A stretch of 32,000 bases of DNA from Desulfobulbus propionicus DSM 2032 (GCF_000186885.1 NC_014972.1:3720001-3752000), one strand, 5' to 3'; positions 5,545 through 32,000 are shown, counted from the first letter of the stretch. The notes: generated from the sequence alone by a model not told the origin. A program made the numbers and translations.

Positions 5545-5955
5545 TCAGAAGTTTGAGGAGCAGGCGCCGAAGGGACAGGCGGCAACGCAGGCCAGACACT
5601 CGATGCAACTGTCCTCGTTGAACGCCACCTGCCGGGTGGCCCGGTCGACGATCGACAGCGCCCCGGTGGGGCAGTGCACCACGCAGGCCCCGCACTGGCC
5701 GCAGCGGCCCGCATCCCAGAGCATGCCCTTGTTGCCGGCATGGATGTCGACATCAAACCCGCCCAGAAATTCAAAGGCGCGGTCGATGTTCTCCTGGGTG
5801 CCGGTCACCTCCAGACTGAGGTAGCCCTCCTCCTCGCTGGTCACCTTGGCGCGGAAGATATTGACGATCAGGTCGAACTGCTTAACTAACTGATAGACGA
5901 TCGGCTTCTCGGTTTCGCTCTTGGGAAAGTAGAGATAGATTTTTTTGGTGATCAT
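5545..5955 (-). CDS. NIL-domain / 2x[4Fe-4S] ferredoxin protein (MA1822-like homocysteine-synthesis partner)
   Basis: N-terminal NIL-like domain (KPIVYQLVKQFDLIVNI). Two CxxCxxCxxxCP motifs (CGQCGACVVHCP and CIECLACVAACP). Its start overlaps the upstream gene's stop by 4 nt. Confidence 0.8.
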   Translation of the reverse strand: MITKKIYLYFPKSETEKPIVYQLVKQFDLIVNIFRAKVTSEEEGYLSLEVTGTQENIDRAFEFLGGFDVDIHAGNKGMLWDAGRCGQCGACVVHCPTGALSIVDRATRQVAFNEDSCIECLACVAACPFGACSSNF

Positions 5956-7145
5956 CGCGCCGGTCCTGTGATGTTCAATGGTTGCATGGACTGGTTCAGC
6001 GGCAGCCGCTGGCTGGGCTCGGCCAGCAGGAAGCGGCCCGCCTCGATCTCGGCCTTGAGCAGGTTGCAGATCCTGAGCGCCTTGTTGTAGGAGGAGAGCG
6101 AGGTCACCGGCACCTTCTTGCCCAGCAGTTCCACCTCGCCCGAGCGCAGTTCCTCGTAGTTGTAGCGGGCCAGCACCTTACCGGTCTTCTGCGGGTAATC
6201 GGTGGAGTAATCGATGACGCAAGCCTGGATATCGCGGTCGCGCACCGTGGTTCGCCGGAGGATCTCCGCGTTGAGGATGGGGATGGGGATGCCCACGCCC
6301 AGGGCCAGCGACACGCCGTAGCCCTTGAAACTGACCCCGCGCACGAACTCGGGCAGCATCTCCTTCATGTTGCCGGTCAAGGCCAGGGTACCCGCCCCCT
6401 CCACTGGCACATCGTTGTCGCCGCGCTCCACCAGCGAGCAGTGCTGGGTGCCCTGGCTGTAAACCAGACCGCGCGCCCCGGCCAGCCAGATGGCGGTGCC
6501 CACGCCGATGGTCTCGTAGAGCGGGTCGTTCAACAGCGGCGACAGCTGCCCGGCCGAGCAGTAGGTCATGTTGCGCATCTTGGCGCGGAGGATGCCCAGA
6601 TAGGTATAGATGCGTTTATCCGAGCAGTTGACCGCCACGTTGTAATTCTGGTAGCAGTTGCGCGGATTGACCATGATCGCCTGGTTGAGATCATGAATAT
6701 CGAACAGGGTGCGGATCTCGCGGCGCGGATAGTCGTCGGTGCCGTAGGAGAGGCCGAAGAGCTGCAGCTTCTTGCCCGCCACCAGATCCTCGATCACATG
6801 GCCGCCGCCGTAGCGGAACTCGCCGGGGTGGTACATGTTGGCCGGGTCGTTGTGGCGCAGTTGGGTGGCGCCCATATAGACGTCGACCGCGGCGATGCCG
6901 CAGTAGGCCATGACATCGTTGATCCAGGCCTCGGAGATGCGCATTTTGGGCTTGCTGTGCCCGAAGTTGAGGAAACAGCCGGAGGAGCACATCGGCCCGA
7001 AGGTGGCGGTGGTGACCACATCCACCTCCTTGGCGGCGGCTTCCAGGCCGCGTTTGTCCACATACTCGATCACCTCTTCGGCGGTCAGCACCACCGCCTT
7101 GCCCGAGGCAATCTTGTCGTTAATTTCCGCGTAGGTCTTGCTCAT
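5952..7145 (-). CDS. COG1900 / DUF39 homocysteine biosynthesis protein (MA1821-like)
   Basis: 397 aa. N-terminus INDKIASGKAVVLTAEEV....VDVVTTATFGPM is typical of COG1900a. It is paired with a NIL-ferredoxin gene. GGGAGA RBS. Confidence 0.8.
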   Translation of the reverse strand: MSKTYAEINDKIASGKAVVLTAEEVIEYVDKRGLEAAAKEVDVVTTATFGPMCSSGCFLNFGHSKPKMRISEAWINDVMAYCGIAAVDVYMGATQLRHNDPANMYHPGEFRYGGGHVIEDLVAGKKLQLFGLSYGTDDYPRREIRTLFDIHDLNQAIMVNPRNCYQNYNVAVNCSDKRIYTYLGILRAKMRNMTYCSAGQLSPLLNDPLYETIGVGTAIWLAGARGLVYSQGTQHCSLVERGDNDVPVEGAGTLALTGNMKEMLPEFVRGVSFKGYGVSLALGVGIPIPILNAEILRRTTVRDRDIQACVIDYSTDYPQKTGKVLARYNYEELRSGEVELLGKKVPVTSLSSYNKALRICNLLKAEIEAGRFLLAEPSQRLPLNQSMQPLNITGPAR

Positions 7146-23797: not shown

Positions 23798-25165
23798 ATG
23801 GCCACCCCGAAAAAAGACACCCTGCTCTTCGTCTGCGGCCAGTGCGGTTTTGAAAGCCGCAAATGGCTGGGACGCTGCCCCGACTGCGGCGCCTGGGACA
23901 GCCTGGGCGAACAGCAAAAACCGCTCGTCCTCCGCCCCGGCCGCAAGGCGGCGACAGCCCAGCCGCTGGCGGCTGCCGGGGAGGAAGAGACCGCCCGCCT
24001 GGTGACCAGCATCGGTGAGATGGATCGGGTGCTCGGCGGCGGCATCGTGCCCGGCTCCCTGGTGCTGATCGGCGGCGATCCGGGCATCGGCAAGTCGACC
24101 CTGATCCTGCAGCTGCTCTCGTCGCTGGCGGCCAAGGGGCTCAAGGTGCTCTACGTCACCGGCGAGGAATCGGTGCGCCAGATCCGCATGCGGGCCAACC
24201 GCCTCAACATCGAGGATCCGGCGATTTCCGTGTCCACCGAGAACTGCGTCGAGGCCATTGTCGATCTGGCCGGGACCATGCAACCGGCCCTGCTGGCGGT
24301 GGATTCGATCCAGACGGTGTATAGCGAGGAGGTCGGGTCGGCGCCCGGCTCGGTCACCCAGGTGCGCGAGGCCACGGCCAGGCTGCTGGCCCTGGCCAAA
24401 TCGAGCCATCTGCCGATTCTGCTGGTCGGCCACGTGACCAAGGACGGGGCCATCGCCGGTCCGCGGGTACTGGAGCATATGGTCGATACGGTGCTCTATT
24501 TCGAAGGGGATCGCGGCCAGGTGTTCCGTATTCTACGGACGGTGAAGAACCGGTTCGGCTCGACCAACGAGATCGGGGTGTTCGAGATGCAGGAGAGCGG
24601 CTTGGTCGGGGTGGACAACCCCTCGGCCCTGTTCCTCGCCGAGCGGCCGGTCAATGTGCCGGGGTCGGTGGTGTTGCCCAGCGTCGAGGGCACGCGGCCA
24701 ATCCTGGTCGAGGTCCAGGCCCTGGTCAGTCGCTCCAGTCTGGGCACGGCCCGGCGTACCGCCATCGGCGCCGATCCGCAGCGGCTGGCCCTGCTCACCG
24801 CCGTGCTGGAAAAAAAGCTCGGGGTGACGCTGTTTGATCACGACATCTTTCTCAACATCGCCGGCGGCATCCGCATCATCGAGCCGGCCCTGGACCTGGG
24901 GGTGGTGGCGGCCCTGCTGTCCAGTTTTCTTGAGAAACCGATCGATCCCGGGACCGTGGTCTGCGGCGAGGTCGGCCTGGCCGGCGAGGTCCGGGCCGTG
25001 GGCCAGATGGAGATGCGGCTGCGCGAGGCCGGCCGGCTTGGCTTCAAGACCTTTCTCATGCCGGAATCCTCGACGCGCCAACTGCAGTCCAAGGCCAGGG
25101 AAGGATTGCACCTCCTGCCGGTGCGGACGGTGGCGGAGTTGGCCGACAGCCTGTTTCGCGCCTGA
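23798..25165 (+). CDS. radA: DNA repair protein RadA/Sms
   Basis: N-terminal zinc finger CGQCGFESRKWLGRCPDCGAW, Walker A GDPGIGKST, the KNRFG motif and a Lon-like C-domain. Confidence 0.95.
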   Translation: MATPKKDTLLFVCGQCGFESRKWLGRCPDCGAWDSLGEQQKPLVLRPGRKAATAQPLAAAGEEETARLVTSIGEMDRVLGGGIVPGSLVLIGGDPGIGKSTLILQLLSSLAAKGLKVLYVTGEESVRQIRMRANRLNIEDPAISVSTENCVEAIVDLAGTMQPALLAVDSIQTVYSEEVGSAPGSVTQVREATARLLALAKSSHLPILLVGHVTKDGAIAGPRVLEHMVDTVLYFEGDRGQVFRILRTVKNRFGSTNEIGVFEMQESGLVGVDNPSALFLAERPVNVPGSVVLPSVEGTRPILVEVQALVSRSSLGTARRTAIGADPQRLALLTAVLEKKLGVTLFDHDIFLNIAGGIRIIEPALDLGVVAALLSSFLEKPIDPGTVVCGEVGLAGEVRAVGQMEMRLREAGRLGFKTFLMPESSTRQLQSKAREGLHLLPVRTVAELADSLFRA

Positions 25166-25246
25166 TCGACCCTCGGCATCCGCCCCCCTGCTCCTCCCGA
25201 TGTTCCGCGAGGAGAGGTTCCCGCTGCAACCGCGCCAGCAGTCCGA

Positions 25247-28200
25247 TCACCGCCGGTAGATGCGCACCTCGATCCCGGGTGTGCTCTGCATCTGATTCCA
25301 GCGGCCATCGGCGATATGGACCTTGGCCCGGATCTCGTCACGGGAGCGGAACGGCCGTTCCCGAAGAATGGCATCGGCGAGTTCCTCACCGATGCCGGAA
25401 AGGCCGATCAGTTCGGCGCGGGACATCTCGTTGAGATACACCACCCGTTTGGGGATGGCCCGGGTGGCGTAATGGTCGAGCTGGGTATCGATTTCATTGT
25501 CCACCGTATGCCGTGCCACGCTGGAACCGGCGGCCCCCGAGGACAGCACCTCGTGGGCCGCGCAGTCAAGGGCGACCGGAATGGCCTGCTCGCCTTCGAT
25601 GATGTCGGCCTTGTCCTCGGCATCGGGATTGCCCAGGGCACGCAGGTAGGTGATGTCCGCCTGCCGCGACGGCTGCCCGTAACGGGCCGTGACCACAAAA
25701 TTGACGGTTTTCAGGTTGCGCGCCTGGGCCTGGGCCGCTGTCGGCGTACTGTAGGCCCCCTCGGTGCCGTTCACCGCCAATTTGACGAATTTTTCGAACC
25801 GGTTTTTATGGTCGCTGTTGGCGGCCTGGGTCAGCGGAGTAAGGTTGTCCCAGGTGTTGCCCGGACCGCCGAGATTGTCGTTGAGCAGATGCCCCTTGAT
25901 GTAGTAGACCCCTTCCCCCTGCTTGCGTTTGCTGATCTTGCCCCACAGGGGATTGCCCATGTCGCCGGAAGAGGGGGAACTGCCATTGGCATGGATCGGG
26001 GTCAGACGCATGACGCTGGCCGAGCCGCCGAAGCCGTTCACTCTGCCGCCGTACACCGGTGGAGTGGAAGCGGTGATATCGACCGGCATGAACCGTGCCG
26101 TGGCATCGGCAAGACGGGCCAGCAGACCGTCAATGATGTCGGCGTGGTTGGTGGTGGCGGCCGGACCTCCTCCGGGTCCCGGGGTGGGGTTGTCGGTGCT
26201 GGCGGTGACGATGGCGGCATCCAATTCGGTGGCGACCTGGACAGCCTGCTGCTTGTCACCCTGCTTGTCCGGCGGCACCTCGACCGTGCGAAGGAAATCC
26301 TGATACGGTGTCGGCGCGGAAGCCATCATCACCCTGGCAGAGCGGCCGCTGCCCTGAATATAGAGGCTGTGCCGTCCGCCGCCCGCCTGAAACTCGCGTC
26401 GTGCCCGCCACCAGTCCCGGAGACGGGCCACGCCCCGCCGAACCGCCGCCGTGCCCCGCCGCACCATGGCGATCACCGCCCGCCCCAACCGCAGGGCCCG
26501 GTCGATCAGCCAGTCGACCGCTCCGGTCACCCGCTCCCTGAGCCCACCGAGAATCTCCCGCAGCCGCTGCGACAGTCGGCCCAGACCGGCCTGGTTGGCG
26601 AGAAAACCGATGGCGATCGGCAGGGCGCTTGCCAGGGCGCTCTCGACAAAACCGGCCGCCTCGCCGATGGCGCCCCGGGCGATGCCGCCGATGCCGTCCA
26701 GCACCCGGGAGACGATCTCCAGCATCTGCCGCAGGTACTGCATGAACGACTCGATGGCCCGATAGATGGCGATCAGGGTATTGATCACCGGCATGATGCC
26801 GGTGACGTCGAGCAGGGAGAGCAGCCAGCGACTGGCCCAGCCGATCACCCGCTCGGTGATGAAGCCGGTCACGCCCTGCACGACCGTGTCCCACAGGTTG
26901 GACAACCGCTCGCTCACCTCCCGCCACAGCCCGGCCGGGCCGTCATTGATCAGGGTGGCGACAAACGACCACACCCCGGTGGCGATCTCCAGCATCGAGC
27001 GCAGCCGGGCAACGATGGCCGGATCGATGCGCCGTTCCAGGCGGGCAAAGATGGTGTCCCGGGTCAAACCAAGGACATCGAGGACAAAGCCCAGGACCGA
27101 GCGCAGGGAAAAGTCGGCCGGCGGGTTGATGCCCGCCTCGCGCACGGTGGCGAACAGCCAGTTGGTGAAGCCGGCCAGCAGATGGGTGCCGATATTGCCG
27201 AAGAAGCGGGTGAACCCGGCCCCCATGGCGCGCAGCAGGTTGGCGAGAAACCCGAGCGGATCGGTGAGGATGGCGCCAATGGCGCCGGCGGCCTTAGCCA
27301 AAATCTGCACCACCAGTTGCGCCGGCACATTGAAAATGCGCAGCACCGCCTGGAAAAAGGCCCAGGCCGCAGCGGCGAGGTCACCGTCGACAAAGATGCG
27401 GCGCAGGATGCCCAGCGCGGTCTGCTGCACCCGGGGCCAGAGCTCGGGGTCGGAGAAGAACTGACCGAACACCGGAATCCGGGCCAGGATCTGGTTCTTG
27501 ATGAAATTTTCCACCGGCTCGCGGATGCAGCGCGGCACCCGCTGCCAGATCGAATTGAGCACCAACAGCGGCAGCTGCAACAGGTCGCCAAAGATGGTGA
27601 TCACCTTGCGCACCGTGTCCAGCACCAGTTCCAGAAAGGGGGTGAGCGCATCGAAGCCCTGCACCAGCCAGGTGAACAGCACCGCCACCTTGTCGCGCGC
27701 CCAGGCGAGCAGGCTGGTGATTCCCTCTTCCAGCCAGGTGAAGGCCCCGGCCAGCCAGGACAGCAAATCGCTGGCCCGCAAGCGCCCGATTAGACCACTG
27801 ACCAAGGCGCCGACCCCGGCGATCCGTTCGCCCAGCCACTGGCCGGCGCCGACAATGATCCGCCGCACCGTGGCGATGATGTTCTGCACCGACGGCAGCA
27901 CCGAGGCCAGGGTGTCGCGTGCCGCCGGTACCCCGTCGCCGCCGTCCATGCCCGAGGCGGCGGTGTCCAGTTCGCCTGAAAGCTGCTGGGCTTGCTCGCC
28001 CATCTCGCGGACAAAGGCGGGTGGAATCAGTTCGGCCACCCGTCCGGCAAACTCAGCCACCGGCTGCCACACCGGCCGCGTTTGCGTTTTGACCCAATCC
28101 CAGGCCTCGCCCGCCTTGCGGCTGATCCAGCCGAGCACCCCGCCCTGGCTGCCGGTGCTGTCCTCACCCTCGGAGGAGCCGAACAGCAGGTCCTTGAACC

Positions 28201-29371
28201 AGTTCCATACCCGCGCGGCTGCCTCGCGCACCGGCCGGATCCATTCCCAGAAACGGCGACCCAGATCCTGAATCCCTTCCCAGACCGCGCCGCCAAATTC
28301 GCGCAGCCACTGCACCGCCGGGGCACCGAAGTTGGCCCACAGGTCGCGGAAGAAATCCCCCACCGGCTGGAGGAACTCGGTCAACTTGTTCCAGGCCACG
28401 CCGGCGGTCTCGACCACAAAGGTCTTCATGTCGTTGATGGCGGCCATCAATGGCTCGCACCGGCCCGAGGCCAGGCCGCTGGCGATGGCGGCGGCGCGCT
28501 CCACCAGGCCGGCGAAGAAATCGATCAGCTGGCGCGGCCCGTCAAAGGGCACCAGGGCCCGCAGGGTGCCGATGAACCCGTCCCAGGCCCGGGCCACCTG
28601 GCGGCCGAGCCAGGTGAGGATGCCCTCGTCGACGATGGCGCGCACGGTGCGGGCAAATTCGGGGGAAATGGTTTCCAAGAGCCGCCAGCCGAACTCGCGG
28701 ATCTTGTCCACCGCCCAATCGGCAATGTCGCCCAGGGTCTCGACCGCGCCATGGTAGAGATCGCTCCAGAAGCCGCGCCGCACCGGCTGCTGTTCGACAC
28801 TGCTGGTCTCGCCGCGTTGCTGGGCCACATGGGCCAGTTCGTGGGCAAGGAGAAAACGGCCGGCAGCGGTTTCGGGTTGATAGTATCCCCGGTTGAAGGC
28901 GATATGGTCGCCGATGGTGAAGGCTTGAGCGTACAGGGTTTCGTTGAGCCTGATGGCGCGCGGATCGGTATGCAGGCGGATCGCGCCCAGATCCATGCCG
29001 AAACGGGCCTCCATGTCGGTGCGCAACGGCGGCGGCAGGGGATCGCCGCCACTTTGCAGGGCCGTGATCTCGCGCTCGATGGATTCGGGCAGGGATTGTT
29101 CTTCTTCGGGAGGATGATGCACCCCCTCGTGATCCCCCGAGGGTGAGAGGGCGCACCGGATCGCCGCACGGTTGACGGAGGCGGTTGCAGTCCCACTGGC
29201 CTCCCCGGCCGCCGCCATCTTCCGGCCTAGGGCTTTGGCGGCAATGCGGTCGGCCTGCTGCTCGGCCTCGTCATGCGCGGCGCCCAGCTTGAGTTTGGGC
29301 CGCACGCCGGCGGGCACACGGACCGGCGGCCTATGGGCCGGCTGTTTCTGGACGAGCGCGGCGGTCAGCAT
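25247..29371 (-). CDS. 1374-aa multidomain DUF4157 (HExxH) protein with an HNH/EndoVII-like motif and a ComEA-like HhH tail; putative toxin/effector
   Basis: DUF4157 signature at aa ~108-186: PLPPPLRTDMEARFGMDLGAIRLHTD...AFTIGDHIAFNRGYY...GRFLLAHELAHVAQQ (HELAH at nt 28829-28843). YYIKGHLLNDNLGGPGNTWDNLTPLTQAANSDH at nt 25808-25894. LNEMSRAELIGLSGIGEELADAILRERPF at nt 25352-25435. The ATG lies 17 nt after the upstream stop, with a GAGGGGG RBS. Confidence 0.8.
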   Translation of the reverse strand: MLTAALVQKQPAHRPPVRVPAGVRPKLKLGAAHDEAEQQADRIAAKALGRKMAAAGEASGTATASVNRAAIRCALSPSGDHEGVHHPPEEEQSLPESIEREITALQSGGDPLPPPLRTDMEARFGMDLGAIRLHTDPRAIRLNETLYAQAFTIGDHIAFNRGYYQPETAAGRFLLAHELAHVAQQRGETSSVEQQPVRRGFWSDLYHGAVETLGDIADWAVDKIREFGWRLLETISPEFARTVRAIVDEGILTWLGRQVARAWDGFIGTLRALVPFDGPRQLIDFFAGLVERAAAIASGLASGRCEPLMAAINDMKTFVVETAGVAWNKLTEFLQPVGDFFRDLWANFGAPAVQWLREFGGAVWEGIQDLGRRFWEWIRPVREAAARVWNWFKDLLFGSSEGEDSTGSQGGVLGWISRKAGEAWDWVKTQTRPVWQPVAEFAGRVAELIPPAFVREMGEQAQQLSGELDTAASGMDGGDGVPAARDTLASVLPSVQNIIATVRRIIVGAGQWLGERIAGVGALVSGLIGRLRASDLLSWLAGAFTWLEEGITSLLAWARDKVAVLFTWLVQGFDALTPFLELVLDTVRKVITIFGDLLQLPLLVLNSIWQRVPRCIREPVENFIKNQILARIPVFGQFFSDPELWPRVQQTALGILRRIFVDGDLAAAAWAFFQAVLRIFNVPAQLVVQILAKAAGAIGAILTDPLGFLANLLRAMGAGFTRFFGNIGTHLLAGFTNWLFATVREAGINPPADFSLRSVLGFVLDVLGLTRDTIFARLERRIDPAIVARLRSMLEIATGVWSFVATLINDGPAGLWREVSERLSNLWDTVVQGVTGFITERVIGWASRWLLSLLDVTGIMPVINTLIAIYRAIESFMQYLRQMLEIVSRVLDGIGGIARGAIGEAAGFVESALASALPIAIGFLANQAGLGRLSQRLREILGGLRERVTGAVDWLIDRALRLGRAVIAMVRRGTAAVRRGVARLRDWWRARREFQAGGGRHSLYIQGSGRSARVMMASAPTPYQDFLRTVEVPPDKQGDKQQAVQVATELDAAIVTASTDNPTPGPGGGPAATTNHADIIDGLLARLADATARFMPVDITASTPPVYGGRVNGFGGSASVMRLTPIHANGSSPSSGDMGNPLWGKISKRKQGEGVYYIKGHLLNDNLGGPGNTWDNLTPLTQAANSDHKNRFEKFVKLAVNGTEGAYSTPTAAQAQARNLKTVNFVVTARYGQPSRQADITYLRALGNPDAEDKADIIEGEQAIPVALDCAAHEVLSSGAAGSSVARHTVDNEIDTQLDHYATRAIPKRVVYLNEMSRAELIGLSGIGEELADAILRERPFRSRDEIRAKVHIADGRWNQMQSTPGIEVRIYRR

Positions 29372-29388: not shown

Positions 29389-30555
29389 TCAGGTCCGATA
29401 ACCGAAAAAGTAGTACAGCAGAACGCCGCACCAGGCGCGGGTAAACTCGGTTTTGCCGTTGTCGTTCCAGAAATTGGCCATGATATCGGTTTCATAACCC
29501 GGTAGATCGATACTGCCGAGCGAGGGCACGTCGATATACTTGTCGTCCAGCCCCATCATGTGCCCCACTTCGTGGGCAACCACCAGCGGGGCGGCATCCG
29601 CGGCCCAGCGGCCCGTGCTCCAAGGATCGCGTCCCCAGCCGGAATATTGGACAACAGAACGAAATCCATTCTGTTCGACAAAGACCGCATTGGATTCAGG
29701 CACCATGGCCTGCATGAGTCGGCTGTCGGCAAAAAGCGGATAGGCCTTGGCCGTGACGTGGATCTTGGCGTCGATGGTCATCCCTTTGAGTTTCAGCTGC
29801 CGGTTCCACTGCTTTTCGATATCGCTCGCCCATTTCGAAGCCAGGGTGGCACTGGATCGGGAACCATACAGGCCGAGACTGAAATACAGGTCAATCCCGC
29901 TTTTTTTCACGGTGATCCGATCGATCTTCCGTTTGAGCTCCTCCCGTCCCTGTTCCTGCTGCACCACATGCGCCAGTTCATGCGCCAGCAACCGCCGCCC
30001 TTCCTGGGAATGGGGACGGTATTCCCCCGCGCCGAAATAGACCTCGCCGCCGGTGGTGAAGGCCCGGGCCGAAAGACCGGCCGCCAACCGCGCCGCCGCG
30101 TCATCGGTATGGACGCGTACCCGGCTCAGGTCGGTACCGAGTCGAGGTTCGAAAAAGGCCCGTTCGCGGCCGGGCAGCGGATGACCGCCACCGCGACCAA
30201 GCGCGAGGGGCTGGCCATCGGCAGAGGTGGCCGTTGTTCCCGGCACGGCCTTGCGGCGCACCTCTTCCTCCTGGTCGTTTTCCGCCCCGGGCCGCTGCCG
30301 CTCTTCCTCGTCGATCGGCACCGTGTCCGCCGCCTTGCGTTGGATCGGTCCATCGTGCATGGCCAGCACCCGGTCGGCAACGCTATCGGCCTCGTGCTCC
30401 AGGTGGTCATCGGTGGAACCGATGCGCAACTTGGTCTGCACCGGACTCTCGAGGGCCTCGCGCAGACTGGTGCGGTTGACCTCGATTCGGGTCGGCCGGA
30501 TAACCGCCAGACGGCGGGCTCGGTGCTGCCTGCGGATATGCTGGAAGGATTTCAT
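29389..30555 (-). CDS. 388-aa DUF4157 protein with a second, metzincin-like zinc-peptidase domain; putative toxin/effector
   Basis: DUF4157 signature: HPLPGRERAFFEPRLGTDLSRVRVHTD...AFTTGGEVYFGAGEY...GRRLLAHELAHVVQQ (HELAH at nt 29968-29982). C-terminal VVAHEVGHMMGLDD (nt 29542-29574), then TDIMA 25 aa later. AGAGGAGG RBS. Confidence 0.8.
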   Translation of the reverse strand: MKSFQHIRRQHRARRLAVIRPTRIEVNRTSLREALESPVQTKLRIGSTDDHLEHEADSVADRVLAMHDGPIQRKAADTVPIDEEERQRPGAENDQEEEVRRKAVPGTTATSADGQPLALGRGGGHPLPGRERAFFEPRLGTDLSRVRVHTDDAAARLAAGLSARAFTTGGEVYFGAGEYRPHSQEGRRLLAHELAHVVQQEQGREELKRKIDRITVKKSGIDLYFSLGLYGSRSSATLASKWASDIEKQWNRQLKLKGMTIDAKIHVTAKAYPLFADSRLMQAMVPESNAVFVEQNGFRSVVQYSGWGRDPWSTGRWAADAAPLVVAHEVGHMMGLDDKYIDVPSLGSIDLPGYETDIMANFWNDNGKTEFTRAWCGVLLYYFFGYRT

Positions 30556-30591: not shown

Positions 30592-32000
30592 TCAAAACGG
30601 TAGCGGCACCAGCTCGATCAGCACGTTGCCGGTCGAGGCCAACCGATTATGTCTCACCGTGCTGGCAAGCACATCATTGCTGGTGTAATTCTCAAGCAGA
30701 TTGCCCGTGAAGGTGGCCCGGTCGCCGATGACCGATCCCATCCAGTCGGCATCCAAGGCGGCGCGAAACCAGGTATTGCCCTGACCGATAAAGACGGCCG
30801 CCACCACCGTGGTGCCATACCCGCTAAAGCTGTTGCCGGTCAGCATCAGCCGGGCGTAACCGTTCACCCGCTGGTTGAGCACCCGGTTGGTGCCCACCGA
30901 GCCTGGCGGCAGATTGGCCTTGATCGCCGTGATCCGGTTGTGGTCGATGTGCAGGTCCTCGCCGCCGCTGAGGACCGCGTTGCCCTCCAGGGAGAAGTTG
31001 ACCACCCCCGCGTCGGGGTTGCGGTAGCCGGACACGCCGTTGGCGAGCAGCAGCCAGCCGTCGATCTCGCTCCCGGCCAGCACGCCGCCAACCTTGGCGC
31101 TTTCCAGGCGCAGGGCATAGTCGGGCTCGTAGCTGATCCAGTTGGCGACCAGATCCTCAATGGCCGCCACCGCCTCGTTGACGGTGATGCTATCGGCGGC
31201 CAGGACCTCGGACATGGTGGCGGTCGTCGGCTTGGGCGCCCGCATGGCTACCGCCTTGGGTGAGGCCACCTGCTCGAGCTTGGTCCGCCAGGTGGTGCGG
31301 ATATCCTTGGGCAGGACGATGATCTGCTTCGCTACCTTGACCAGGGCCTCGTCAAAGGCGACCTTGTTGTCCAGCAGTTCCTCCTTGCTCAGACCAAGCA
31401 GGGCCTCGCTGATGACGTTGTTGCCCACCACCTCGACCCCGACCCACTCATTCCCACTTGACGAGACAACCTTCCGCTGAGCATAGAGCTGATTATTTTG
31501 CCAATCGAGACGGCAGACCGTGTTGCCCCGACCGCCGAGACTGATCATCGCCGGGCCGTTCGCCGTGGTGCTGGTGCGGGCGATACGGCAACCGGTGGTG
31601 CGGGAGAGGGCGGCCCGGATCGCCAACTGCCCGGCACGTTTGGCGAAGTCGAGCGTCAGGTTCTCCAGGATCACCTCATCGGCCTCGATACGCCAGGTGT
31701 CGCCGCCAAACAGAATGGTCACCGATTCAGGTCCCTGACCGCTGATCCGCAGGCTGCGCTTATCGGTGATCGCCGGCAGATCGCCCAACGCGTAGACGCC
31801 GCCCCGAAGGCAGAGCCACAGATCACTGGCGGTGGATTGGGCAAATTCCTCCAGCAGCACCGCCAGATGACCGGGGGAGGTCACCATGACCGCGCAGCCG
31901 CCGGCCGCCTTGTCGCACAACACCTTGAGCGCATCCTGGACCGTGACCACCGATTCGGGCAGCAGATCGCTGCACAGGCCGATGTCGCCCTTGTCGAGCG
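30592..32000 (-). CDS. Hypothetical protein with parallel-beta-helix-like GN repeats; 5' end probably beyond the window
   Basis: The track starts at a GTG (31950), but the frame stays open to nt 31998 (LDKGDIGLCSDLLPES precedes it). A recurrent [LF/V]xGNx[VLF] motif appears at least 6 times: GRGNTVC, VVGNNVI, LEGNAVL, LTGNSFS, FTGNLLE and STGNVLI. It lies 36 nt upstream of the DUF4157 gene on the same strand. Confidence 0.6.
   Translation of the reverse strand, partial: LDKGDIGLCSDLLPESVVTVQDALKVLCDKAAGGCAVMVTSPGHLAVLLEEFAQSTASDLWLCLRGGVYALGDLPAITDKRSLRISGQGPESVTILFGGDTWRIEADEVILENLTLDFAKRAGQLAIRAALSRTTGCRIARTSTTANGPAMISLGGRGNTVCRLDWQNNQLYAQRKVVSSSGNEWVGVEVVGNNVISEALLGLSKEELLDNKVAFDEALVKVAKQIIVLPKDIRTTWRTKLEQVASPKAVAMRAPKPTTATMSEVLAADSITVNEAVAAIEDLVANWISYEPDYALRLESAKVGGVLAGSEIDGWLLLANGVSGYRNPDAGVVNFSLEGNAVLSGGEDLHIDHNRITAIKANLPPGSVGTNRVLNQRVNGYARLMLTGNSFSGYGTTVVAAVFIGQGNTWFRAALDADWMGSVIGDRATFTGNLLENYTSNDVLASTVRHNRLASTGNVLIELVPLPF

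Follow-up and report, generated by a model that had tools for sequence, protein, structure and literature searches.

A probable exchangeable nuclease toxin with a ComEA-like helix-hairpin-helix tail at the C terminus of an eCIS cargo protein of Desulfobulbus propionicus

What does the C terminus of the 1374-residue protein encoded at this locus do, and by what route would it reach its target? Extracellular contractile injection systems (eCIS), which are phage-tail-like machines, are being engineered for protein delivery, yet few of their native cargos have an assigned activity; DUF4157 is found on more than half of the predicted eCIS toxins, most of which carry no other annotated domain (PMC11297309). 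The gene lies in a stretch of 32,000 nucleotides from Desulfobulbus propionicus DSM 2032 (GCF_000186885.1 NC_014972.1:3720001-3752000), referred to here as the window, and all positions are counted from its first letter. A sequence-only reading had placed an HNH/EndoVII-like signature and a ComEA-type helix-hairpin-helix (HhH) at 25352–25894 and argued for a DNA-targeting toxin; the carrier, a DUF4157 eCIS cargo protein, was absent from it. The protein is best explained as a loading region, an eCIS_core (DUF4157) domain, a helical region of ~800 residues and, after a junction motif, ~390 residues of exchangeable cassette. This cassette is probably the toxic C-terminal part of an eCIS cargo, comprising a predicted Serratia/EndoG-type DNase and a ComEA-like double HhH.

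The gene, as defined by the ORF list and by translation, occupies positions 25247–29371 of the minus strand, with its stop codon at 25247–25249, and a 3.85-Mb contig as well as Logan contigs encode exactly the same 1374-residue protein. An ORF of 825 residues on the plus strand (25316–27793), which overlaps the cassette, was rejected because homology, domains and synteny all lie on the minus strand; it is regarded as a shadow ORF of a gene with 64% GC. The N-terminal region (NTD; residues 1–110, minus strand, 29042–29371), presumed to be the eCIS loading sequence, contains the motif PKLKLG..HDEAEQQADRIA, and its KL+(L/I)G..D..E.EAD motif is common to the neighboring cargo protein (BLASTP E=4e-23 over NTD and DUF4157). 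It is followed by the eCIS_core (DUF4157) domain (residues 111–188, minus strand, 28808–29041), which scores 98.2 bits with Pfam PF13699 (cut-off 22, E=3.1e-28); it lies near the N terminus of the protein and has HExxH in the form HELAH at residues 177–181. The next ~800 residues (189 to ~975, minus strand, 26447–28807) form an all-α, Trp-rich "linker" with 34 Trp residues and four moderately hydrophobic segments. This helical region is the best-conserved part of the protein (50–99% identity over 94 full-length relatives); a Pfam scan gave no match for it, and the AF2 model of residues 189–1010 consists entirely of helices at low confidence (pLDDT 61, pTM 0.36). The junction, or pre-toxin segment (residues 976–1100, minus strand, 26072–26446), begins directly after the recombination breakpoint described below, and the motif WWRxR..F..G..HxLY..G..A.LM.AS.P..Y..F is seen in every cassette aligned. 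The remainder comprises the nuclease domain (residues 1101–1305, minus strand, 25457–26071), with a predicted DNA/RNA non-specific endonuclease fold and a ββα-Me core at residues 1157–1201 (25769–25903) that includes H1161, N1176, N1185, E1193 and K1197, and a C-terminal add-on (residues 1306–1374, minus strand, 25250–25456) identified as a ComEA-like HhH from Pfam HHH_3, Foldseek and DSSP. The two peptides named in the sequence-only reading are real and lie on the minus strand, in a range that clips both by 12–21 nucleotides: YYIKGH...SDH spans residues 1156–1188 (25808–25906) and LNEMS...DEI spans residues 1313–1347 (25331–25435). The translation bears out both the distance of ~125 residues from the nuclease motif to the HhH and the numbering of H1161.

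The toxin is encoded at the 3′ end of an eCIS operon, in which the gene order is Baseplate_J, Tail_P2_I, DUF6519, a 388-residue DUF4157 protein and, last, the toxin. The DUF6519 gene (1042 residues, assigned by Pfam on the full protein), of which the 3′ part lies at 30592–32000 of the minus strand before it leaves the window, closes the operon's series of structural-type genes ahead of the cargo genes. The companion cargo gene (minus strand, 29389–30555) encodes the 388-residue eCIS_core protein (PF13699, 110.8 bits), whose C-terminal HEVGHMMGLDDKY is metzincin-like (Peptidase_M10, E=0.0096; NCBIfam M6 domain, E=2e-4). Intergenic gaps of 17–36 nucleotides tie the toxin to the eCIS genes, with 17 nucleotides separating it from the companion gene. 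A sequence identical to the window over 7936 nucleotides (L001) extends it and gave the upstream Baseplate_J and Tail_P2_I genes. The relative L086 is collinear, encodes a nuclease 94% identical to that of the window and adds, upstream, genes for sheath, gp19 tube, Pvc16_N, AAA ATPase, CIS_tube and gp25; the source genome was read to 10 kb upstream, and the sheath, tube and ATPase genes are known from this relative alone. The same synteny was found at 8 further loci, and DUF4157 fusions, 1200–1850 residues long, make up 54 of the 81 genomic homologues. [quoted passage not shown] In AlgoCIS, Cgo1 and Cgo2 are DUF4157 cargos inside the tube lumen (PMC8894135), and loading needs the cargo NTD (preprint 10.64898/2026.05.27.728243). 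That the operon position is incidental, the protein being delivered by a T6SS or released, independently of Sec, as a soluble exonuclease, is highly improbable: DUF4157 has occasionally been reported on T6SS effectors (PMC11297309), and PF13930, the nuclease family discussed below, also occurs on carriers of the Rhs, T7SS and CDI kinds, but the short gaps to the eCIS genes, the recurrence of the gene order in more than eight unrelated genomes and in a complete cluster, and the absence of a T6SS or Rhs marker from the Pfam scan of the protein all argue for delivery by the eCIS.

The AF2 model of residues 1090–1374 is confident (pLDDT 92.7, pTM 0.80). When it was compared with the PDB by Foldseek, the best 27 matches were all non-specific His-Me nucleases (Sda1, NucA, CPS-6/EndoG, EXOG and Spd1), with prob up to 1.00, E values of 1e-3 to 0.2 and TM scores of 0.38–0.49; structural matches of the cassette in BFVD were EssD-like, EndoG/NUC1 and ComEA. 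In the DSSP assignment of the model, a strand at residues 1157–1161, a strand at 1177–1181 and a helix at 1182–1201, together with further strands, constitute a ββα-metal unit in a larger sheet. Pfam, proposed with the sequence-only reading as a check of the C-terminal region, gave a nuclease family and HHH_3: in the scan of the whole protein, PF13930 (Endonuclea_NS_2) aligns with residues 1149–1197 (profile positions 48–95 of 132) at 19.6 bits (E=1.1e-3), which is below the gathering cut-off of 27 bits. There are 46 homologues with E values down to 1e-105, many of which have precomputed matches to PF13930 and/or PF12836. Sequence searches of the PDB with the C terminus, with a 46-sequence profile and with a 77-sequence profile gave no nuclease match, only a weak one to ComEA (E=0.099) and noise, and the link to solved nucleases is made by fold comparison alone; a PHROGs scan gave nothing for the C terminus. 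The predicted structure and the profiles support the assignment of the domain as a Serratia/EndoG/Sda1-type nuclease of His-Me finger group 5, Pfam Endonuclea_NS_2. Of the earlier HNH/EndoVII-like label, the ββα-Me fold stands, and the HNH and EndoVII families proper give way to Endonuclea_NS_2, as indicated by Foldseek and Pfam.

The residues of the signature are spaced as H1161-x14-N1176-x8-N1185-x2-H1188, one residue shorter at the first step than the H-x15-N read previously. The codons are at 25889–25891 (H1161), 25844–25846 (N1176), 25817–25819 (N1185) and 25793–25795 (E1193). A bare H/N/N/H spacing carries little information, and support comes instead from profiles and structure. H1161 is invariant among 77 genome homologues from many phyla, and N1176 and E1193 are likewise present in 77 of 77, N1185 and K1197 each in 76; N1176, E1193 and N1185 lie outside the scan pattern with which the 77 were collected. 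The last His of the proposed signature, H1188, is present in the window toxin but is kept in only 67 of these relatives, as compared with all 77 for E1193. The N-x8-N-x7-E spacing of the 1374-residue toxin is identical to that of N110/N119/E127 in Serratia nuclease (steps of 9 and 8 residues), and, by register rather than superposition, N1185 in the core helix corresponds to the metal-ligand Asn (N119) and E1193 to the Glu eight residues further on. When the active-site fragment of Serratia nuclease was aligned with the family profile by hhalign, DNLTPLTQAANS fell on SNITPQKSDLNQ in the expected register, with a probability of only 1.2%; this result serves as a consistency check only, and the residue equivalences are those of the motif register. 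The DRGH motif is not kept: the toxin has Y-I-K-G-H and the family consensus is Y-(V/I)-(K/R/Q)-G-H, so that G-H alone is retained. On the basis of these sequence motifs, the catalytic set most likely consists of H1161 as general base, N1185 as Mg ligand and E1193 as a second-shell residue, and N1176 is proposed to be the structural Asn.

Conservation of these residues bears on the view that the nuclease fold is dead or harmless and that the C terminus is a DNA-binding or adhesion module, tethering the particle, for example, to extracellular DNA. Invariant H1161, N1176 and E1193, with N1185 in 76 of the 77, would be unexpected in a dead enzyme, and the AlgoCIS model puts cargo in the tube lumen and not on the surface. 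The sub-threshold Pfam score, the non-canonical DRGH and the absence of an immunity gene would fit an inert module, and some candidate eCIS toxins were expressed yet proved non-toxic (PMC8213781). We consider a dead or harmless domain extremely unlikely, and the conserved residues argue for an active nuclease.

The tail, isolated as a 90-residue segment, scores 28.1 bits with Pfam HHH_3 (PF12836; cut-off 27, E=2.3e-6); this pass is marginal because the whole-protein scan gives only 22.4 bits (E=1.3e-4). Foldseek aligns the tail with the ComEA-related structure 2duy over 60 columns with an rmsd of 2.0 Å, a TM(target) of 0.72, 30% identity and a prob of 0.99, and the two results together uphold the earlier description of a ComEA-type HhH. 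The tail is laid out as a strand (VVYL), an HhH (RAELI-GLSGIG-EELADAILRE), a second HhH (RDEIRAKV-HIADG-RWNQMQ) and a final strand (IEVR); in the DSSP assignment, helices 1318–1322 and 1329–1338 lie around GLSGIG, and helices 1344–1351 and 1355–1362 lie around HIADG. Of the two hairpins, the first has the canonical GIG and the second, HIADG, is degenerate. The tail is no ComEA orthologue because the NCBIfam comEA model scores 16.6 bits on it against a cut-off of 152. About one fifth of the family members carry the tail, and in a rough NJ tree the tail-bearing sequences comprise one main clade of 16 and scattered lineages. The sequence-only reading had not seen HhH tails described on nuclease toxins, and no discussion of such a tail on a toxin was found in the literature searched; proteins with the three domains are, however, already in databases.

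By analogy with ComEA-type modules, the tail would grip the sugar-phosphate backbone of duplex DNA irrespective of sequence. A ComEA-type (HhH)2 tail confers salt-tolerant activity in a natural DNase and in DNase I fusions (PMC4777378). The same tail weighs on the alternative that the enzyme acts mainly as an RNase, or has no sugar specificity and kills through the cleavage of RNA, and that the HhH serves, for example, contacts with structured RNA or protein. His-Me enzymes of group 5 do degrade both DNA and RNA, and YxiD, a member of the group, has cytotoxic RNase activity (PMC5714182). However, ComEA-type (HhH)2 modules bind the duplex-DNA backbone and the tail matches 2duy structurally; the only natural nuclease-HhH fusion that has been studied has its DNase activity raised (PMC4777378); and the characterized PF13930 toxins RhsA, EsaD and YeeF have DNase activity (PMC9990079). 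RNA as the principal target is thus quite improbable, and the cassette is discussed below as a predicted DNase.

Comparison of the window toxin with its relatives P0080 and P0082 gives identities of 94% and 91% in the helical region and of 29% and 33% in the nuclease, respectively, with a sharp breakpoint at residues ~960–1000 where identity falls from ~95–100% to ~30%. Cassettes that are ~30% identical on carriers that are >90% identical as far as residue ~970 amount to polymorphic-toxin behavior. The HhH tail is missing from the swapped cassettes of P0080, P0082, P0083, P0085 and P0100. No cognate immunity gene adjoins the toxin in the window, in L082 or in L083: on the 3′ side in the window there is an 82-nucleotide gap and then the convergent radA, and in L082 and L083 there are unrelated convergent genes. 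Three ORF families occur 3′ of the toxin in subsets of loci, one of them, at 8 loci, encoding a protein with 3–4 TM segments, and none of the three has a counterpart in the window or its closest relatives. An ORF of 183 residues on the minus strand (24838–25389) was considered as an immunity gene and rejected; it overlaps both the 3′ end of the toxin gene and radA, has no Pfam match and does not resemble the ORF family that lies downstream of the toxin at related loci. A cytoplasmically synthesized, non-specific DNase would ordinarily have an immunity gene beside it, and the lack of one, which bears on self-protection, counts against the toxin reading.

An explanation for this absence would be at hand if the nuclease acted in the producer, as part of a cytoplasmic or lysis-coupled CIS, and destroyed the cell's own genome in programmed death or particle release. 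Streptomyces CIS are reported to be cytoplasmic and tied to cell death, and short DUF4157-PF13930 proteins were found in Streptomyces by the homologue search. Many EATs lack immunity genes, and it has been suggested that they may be made just before lysis or contribute to it (Geller et al., PMC8213781). However, a DUF6519 gene lies ahead of the cargo genes, the Pvc16/AAA-ATPase set, as seen in L086, is typical of released eCIS, cassette swapping among near-identical carriers is a mark of conflict with other organisms, and AlgoCIS particles, once released, expel their DUF4157 cargo (PMC8894135). Action in the producer is therefore judged unlikely, and a toxin delivered to other cells is the reading that we prefer.

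Profiles, homologues, predicted structure and genomic context agree in supporting the earlier proposal that nuclease and HhH together form the warhead of a polymorphic toxin. Profiles and the predicted fold identify the domains, and the analysis further shows that the catalytic residues are conserved, where the gene stands in the operon and that cassettes are swapped. How the toxin is loaded and delivered, that it acts as a DNase, what the HhH contributes and what the target is, we infer as follows. The toxin would be loaded into the tube lumen, probably unfolded by the AAA+ ATPase, alongside the 388-residue metalloprotease-like cargo, and contraction of the sheath would expel it into a target cell. 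There the nuclease would refold and degrade chromosomal DNA in a Mg2+-dependent and sequence-non-specific manner, and the HhH module would raise its affinity for DNA and keep it active at physiological or high ionic strength. In the two-domain model (pTM 0.80), strands VVYL and IEVR appear to bracket the (HhH)2 and to dock it rigidly on the nuclease. It is conceivable, if doubtful, that the docked (HhH)2 makes the enzyme a clamp-like, processive or salt-proof DNase and that cassettes of this kind are swapped at the fixed junction WWRxR without adjacent immunity. If so, producers would be protected without an immunity gene, either by ATPase-coupled unfolding or by autoinhibition through the 800-residue helical region or DUF4157; alternatively, target-side inhibitors and not kin immunity would drive the diversification of the cassettes.

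PF13930 toxins are already known, as are fusions of a nuclease with a ComEA-type HhH in secreted DNases (PMC4777378), and the window toxin is a modestly new form of a familiar type of bacterial weapon that leaves the general picture of nuclease toxins unchanged. Its value is that of a testable case, in which a nuclease cassette is defined and its predicted catalytic residues are named. The near-identical carriers provide a natural comparison with and without the HhH, the mapped recombination junction could guide the swapping of cargo, and the unexplained absence of an immunity gene bears on how a producer survives its own non-specific DNase.

Among toxins, the closest in kind are EsaD/EssD of the Staphylococcus aureus T7SS, Bacillus subtilis YeeF-CT and Dickeya RhsA-CT, with which the window toxin shares a PF13930 nuclease (a weak match here and a clear one in the homologues), a C-terminal toxic domain on a modular carrier and exchangeable cassettes. 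EsaD, YeeF-CT and RhsA-CT come with an adjacent cognate immunity gene (EsaG and others). They also differ in that delivery is by T7SS or T6SS/Rhs and that an HhH tail has not been described for them. The nearest non-specific nucleases, which are secreted or mitochondrial enzymes, are Serratia nuclease (1G8T), Streptococcus pyogenes Sda1/Spd1 (5FGW, 2XH3), group B streptococcal (GBS) NucA (4QH0) and EndoG/CPS-6/EXOG, which, like the predicted window domain, have the ββα-Me finger in a larger sheet with the catalytic His ending strand 1. Identity with them is 10–14%, DRGH in these enzymes is replaced by (I/V)(K/R/Q)GH here, and 14 residues separate the His from the first Asn in the window toxin as compared with 20 in Serratia-type nucleases. 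These enzymes are stand-alone proteins that lack an HhH and are not injection-system cargo, whereas the window nuclease is part of an eCIS cargo.

Among injection systems, AlgoCIS of Algoriphagus machipongonensis has, as here, two adjoining DUF4157 proteins at the end of the eCIS cluster, one small and metalloprotease-like and one large (1228 residues for Cgo2, 1374 here), with an NTD common to the pair. The comparison with Cgo2 covers size, order, NTD and DUF4157; the AlgoCIS reports give a predicted metalloprotease for the Cgo1 CTD and no nuclease function for Cgo2. Pne1 of the MACs of Pseudoalteromonas luteoviolacea is, as cited in PMC8213781, an eCIS-delivered nuclease that kills target cells; Pne1 lacks DUF4157 (preprint 10.64898/2026.05.27.728243), which the window toxin has. 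For the tail, 2DUY and ComEA share the fold, and the window tail differs from them by its degenerate second hairpin, its flanking strands and its fusion to an enzyme. DNaseTA of Thioalkalivibrio sp. K90mix also joins a nuclease to a C-terminal ComEA-type (HhH)2 (PMC4777378); it has a DNase I/EEP fold and not a His-Me fold, and it is a secreted housekeeping enzyme rather than a toxin cassette. Its tail preserves activity at high salt (PMC4777378), and in function it is the closest analogue of the tail of the window toxin.

The window, a segment of bacterial chromosome with ~64% GC, includes housekeeping genes (mnmA-like, recA, aconitase, PEPCK, pyruvate kinase and radA). The ORF list and translation place the toxin, a 1374-residue ORF, on the minus strand (25247..29371), and both peptides that the sequence-only reading had flagged are present at its C terminus: a nuclease-like YYIKGH...SDH (residues 1156–1188, nt 25808–25906) and a helix-hairpin-helix (HhH) peptide, LNEMS...DEI (residues 1313–1347, nt 25331–25435). 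The H-x15-N spacing given for the former is one residue too long; the actual arrangement is H1161-x14-N1176-x8-N1185-x2-H1188. The Pfam search proposed in that reading returned both Endonuclea_NS_2 (residues 1149–1197, E = 1.1e-3, below the cut-off) and HHH_3 (residues 1310–1358, E = 1.3e-4) in the whole protein, together with eCIS_core/DUF4157 (residues 111–188, 98 bits), a domain of extracellular contractile injection system (eCIS) cargo. Two other ORFs, one across the toxin gene (25316..27793, plus strand) and one over its 3' end (24838..25389, minus strand), were set aside as shadow ORFs of a GC-rich gene because they have no domains and no homology support.

The AlphaFold2 model of residues 1090–1374, built from an alignment of 46 relatives retrieved with residues 1091–1374, is confident (pLDDT 92.7, pTM 0.80). 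It has a strand at 1157–1161 with H1161 at its end, a strand at 1177–1181 and a helix at 1182–1201, and this strand-strand-helix unit (residues 1157–1201) is, as modeled, a beta-beta-alpha-metal finger within a larger sheet. The top 27 Foldseek matches in the PDB are all DNA/RNA non-specific nucleases, including Sda1, GBS NucA, CPS-6/EndoG, EXOG and Spd1 (probability up to 1.00, E from 1e-3, TM 0.38–0.49), and a viral library gave fold matches to an EssD-like protein, an EndoG/NUC1 protein and ComEA-like HhH proteins. That RNA is the main target, which neighbors of such dual specificity would allow, is quite improbable; the PF13930 domains of RhsA, EsaD and YeeF are well-established toxins with DNase activity (PMC9990079). 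Jablonska et al. (PMC5714182) place Endonuclease_NS and Endonuclea_NS_2 in His-Me finger group 5, to which the nuclease domain belongs; the HNH/EndoVII class proposed earlier holds for the finger but not for the HNH or EndoVII families proper.

In an alignment of 77 genomic homologues, N1176 and E1193 are invariant, N1185 and K1197 are each kept in 76, and H1188 is kept in 67; that GHLLN.NLGGPG is invariant is in part an ascertainment effect, the same peptide having served as the scan pattern. The Serratia nuclease segment DRGH...SNITPQKSDLNQGAWARLE, confirmed in 1G8T, has the spacing N110-x8-N119-x7-E127, identical to that of N1176-x8-N1185-x7-E1193 in the toxin, and hhalign aligned DNLTPLTQAANS onto SNITPQKSDLNQ at low probability. 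From this motif register we infer that H1161 is the general base and putative equivalent of Serratia H89, N1185 a putative Mg ligand equivalent to N119, E1193 the putative equivalent of E127, and N1176 probably the structural Asn. Across the family, I/V-K/R/Q stands in place of the D-R of the canonical DRGH; that the toxin is a dead enzyme is nevertheless highly improbable.

The tail comprises, in the same model, a strand (1309–1312), four helices that form two HhH motifs and a final strand (1367–1370). In isolation it passes the HHH_3 cut-off (28.1 bits against 27), and it matches ComEA-related 2duy over 60 columns at 2.0 Å (Foldseek, PDB; TM(target) 0.72, 30% identity), which bears out the ComEA-type HhH read after the nuclease. 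Nuclease and tail are common to several of the 46 relatives, on which there are precomputed PF13930 and/or PF12836 matches; the same search returned Streptomyces eCIS_core-PF13930 proteins that lack the tail. Tail-less variants stop right after the last nuclease strand, and therefore the strand-HhH2-strand module (residues 1306–1374) is an addition carried by some nuclease subtypes. BLAST found it in 16 of 94 carriers, iterated search in 43 of 235 proteins and Pfam in 8 of 56 tails; a rough NJ tree has one main HhH clade of 16 and scattered lineages. A distant relative with PF13699, PF13930 and PF12836 (P0188) is labelled "dolichol kinase" at source, likely a mis-annotation.

The region between DUF4157 and the C-terminal cassette (residues 189–975; 26447..28807, minus strand) is all-alpha, ~800 residues long, and contains 34 Trp residues and four segments of moderate hydrophobicity; its AlphaFold2 model is of low confidence (pLDDT 61). 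With 50–99% identity among 94 relatives it is better conserved than any other part of the protein, DUF4157 and the toxin domain included. Speculatively, ~800 helical residues would, if extended, roughly span the eCIS tube length. A query with residues 189–1010 retrieved 110 proteins, mostly of 1300–1400 residues, from Desulfobulbus and many Betaproteobacteria; the closest named relatives of the toxin are from "uncultured Desulfobulbus sp." The 90% cluster of RecA likewise includes "Desulfobulbus sp.", and the window is probably from a Desulfobulbus. A nuclease of the same family is present in 90 of the 94 relatives of at least 1150 residues, and divergence is very uneven between regions: two relatives, P0080 and P0082, are 94 and 91% identical to the toxin in the helical region and 29 and 33% in the nuclease, and a third, P0081, is 93 and 92% identical, respectively. 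Sliding identity and alignment place the breakpoint at residues ~960–1000, just ahead of WWRxRxxF..G..HxLY..G..A.LM.AS.P..Y..F (residues ~985–1030, ~26280..26420, minus strand), which is seen in all cassette variants aligned and may, by analogy with VENN in CdiA, be a demarcation or processing motif of a polymorphic family. Scanning one genome per species located the nuclease at 80 loci; when L001, a contig overlapping the window, is added, 54 of the 81 ORFs are DUF4157 fusions of 1200–1850 residues. In metagenomic contig L082 (L082:5603–5794 and L082:5672–6081) the toxin gene is called at 1224 residues, and the region ahead of its called start still matches the N-terminal domain (NTD) of the window toxin in another frame or position (tblastn, 5672–5872 and 5974–6081), which points to a frameshift or a wrongly called start.

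Over 7936 nt L001 matches the window exactly, and it continues past position 32000. Directly upstream of the toxin is a 388-residue eCIS_core protein (29389..30555, minus strand; Pfam, NCBIfam), preceded by a 1042-residue DUF6519 protein (3' part 30592..32000, minus strand) and, beyond the window, by Tail_P2_I and then Baseplate_J genes; gaps between the toxin and upstream genes are 17–36 nt. The 388-residue protein carries in its C-terminal part HEVGHMMGLDDKY, a metzincin-like zinc-protease motif (Pfam M10, E = 0.0096; NCBIfam M6 domain, E = 2e-4), and has an NTD motif in common with the toxin. Metagenomic contig L086 has the full collinear order (sheath, gp19 tube, Pvc16_N, AAA ATPase, CIS_tube, gp25, Baseplate_J, Tail_P2_I, DUF6519, small DUF4157, toxin), with 74% identity in Baseplate_J and 94% in the toxin nuclease, and the 3'-end synteny is repeated in at least eight other genomes. 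The locus fits the published pattern of eCIS-associated toxins, with N-terminal DUF4157, a linker sometimes of >1000 residues, a C-terminal toxin and a position at the operon 3' end (PMC8213781; PMC11297309). Export by another route is very unlikely.

The gene convergent with the toxin is radA/sms (23798..25165, plus strand; zinc ribbon, KaiC-like ATPase and Lon_C); 82 nt separate the stop codons (intergenic 25166..25246), and a simple scan found no terminator-like hairpin there. In the window, L082 and a further contig, L083, the toxin is not followed by any gene in its own direction. Three ORF families lie downstream in subsets of other loci, one of them a translationally coupled 3–4 TM protein, often overlapping the toxin stop, at eight loci (L005:10878–11558, L006:10832–11443, L011:10890–11270, L013:11181–11540, L014:7930–8337, L015:10935–11330, L023:2786–3190 and L027:4576–5082). 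It is small and conserved, has the pattern FAFALLTWPA...AYGRG.GFGN...GLHAA and no match within the window, and is a possible, if unusual, immunity or lysis protein. How a producer tolerates its own toxin is a puzzle raised for many eCIS toxins by Geller et al. (PMC8213781); that the nuclease acts inside the producer is unlikely. The toxin is rather predicted to be eCIS cargo that would be injected and then act as a Mg-dependent non-specific DNase, the ComEA-type tail contributing sequence-independent duplex binding.

Nuclease toxins of this family, DUF4157 eCIS cargo and nuclease-HhH fusions are already known, and public databases hold proteins with the exact three-domain architecture, annotated only "DUF4157 domain-containing." The claim that HhH tails are undescribed on polymorphic toxins therefore survives only in that no paper discussing one on a polymorphic or eCIS toxin was found in the literature covered, which is incomplete. 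The sequence-only reading was a correct one of an ordinary-to-moderately interesting predicted toxin; more unusual are cassette swapping at a fixed junction without an adjacent immunity gene and an 800-residue helical region that outdoes the rest of the protein in conservation. The pair of small and large DUF4157 proteins mirrors AlgoCIS Cgo1 (small, protease-like) and Cgo2 (large), which fill the tube lumen (PMC8894135); AlgoCIS cargo needs a disordered NTD to be loaded but can do without DUF4157 (preprint 10.64898/2026.05.27.728243). For the tail, the best functional precedent, by analogy, is the Thioalkalivibrio DNase, which stays active at high salt through its natural ComEA-derived HhH2 domain; when transferred, this domain confers high-salt activity on DNase I (PMC4777378).
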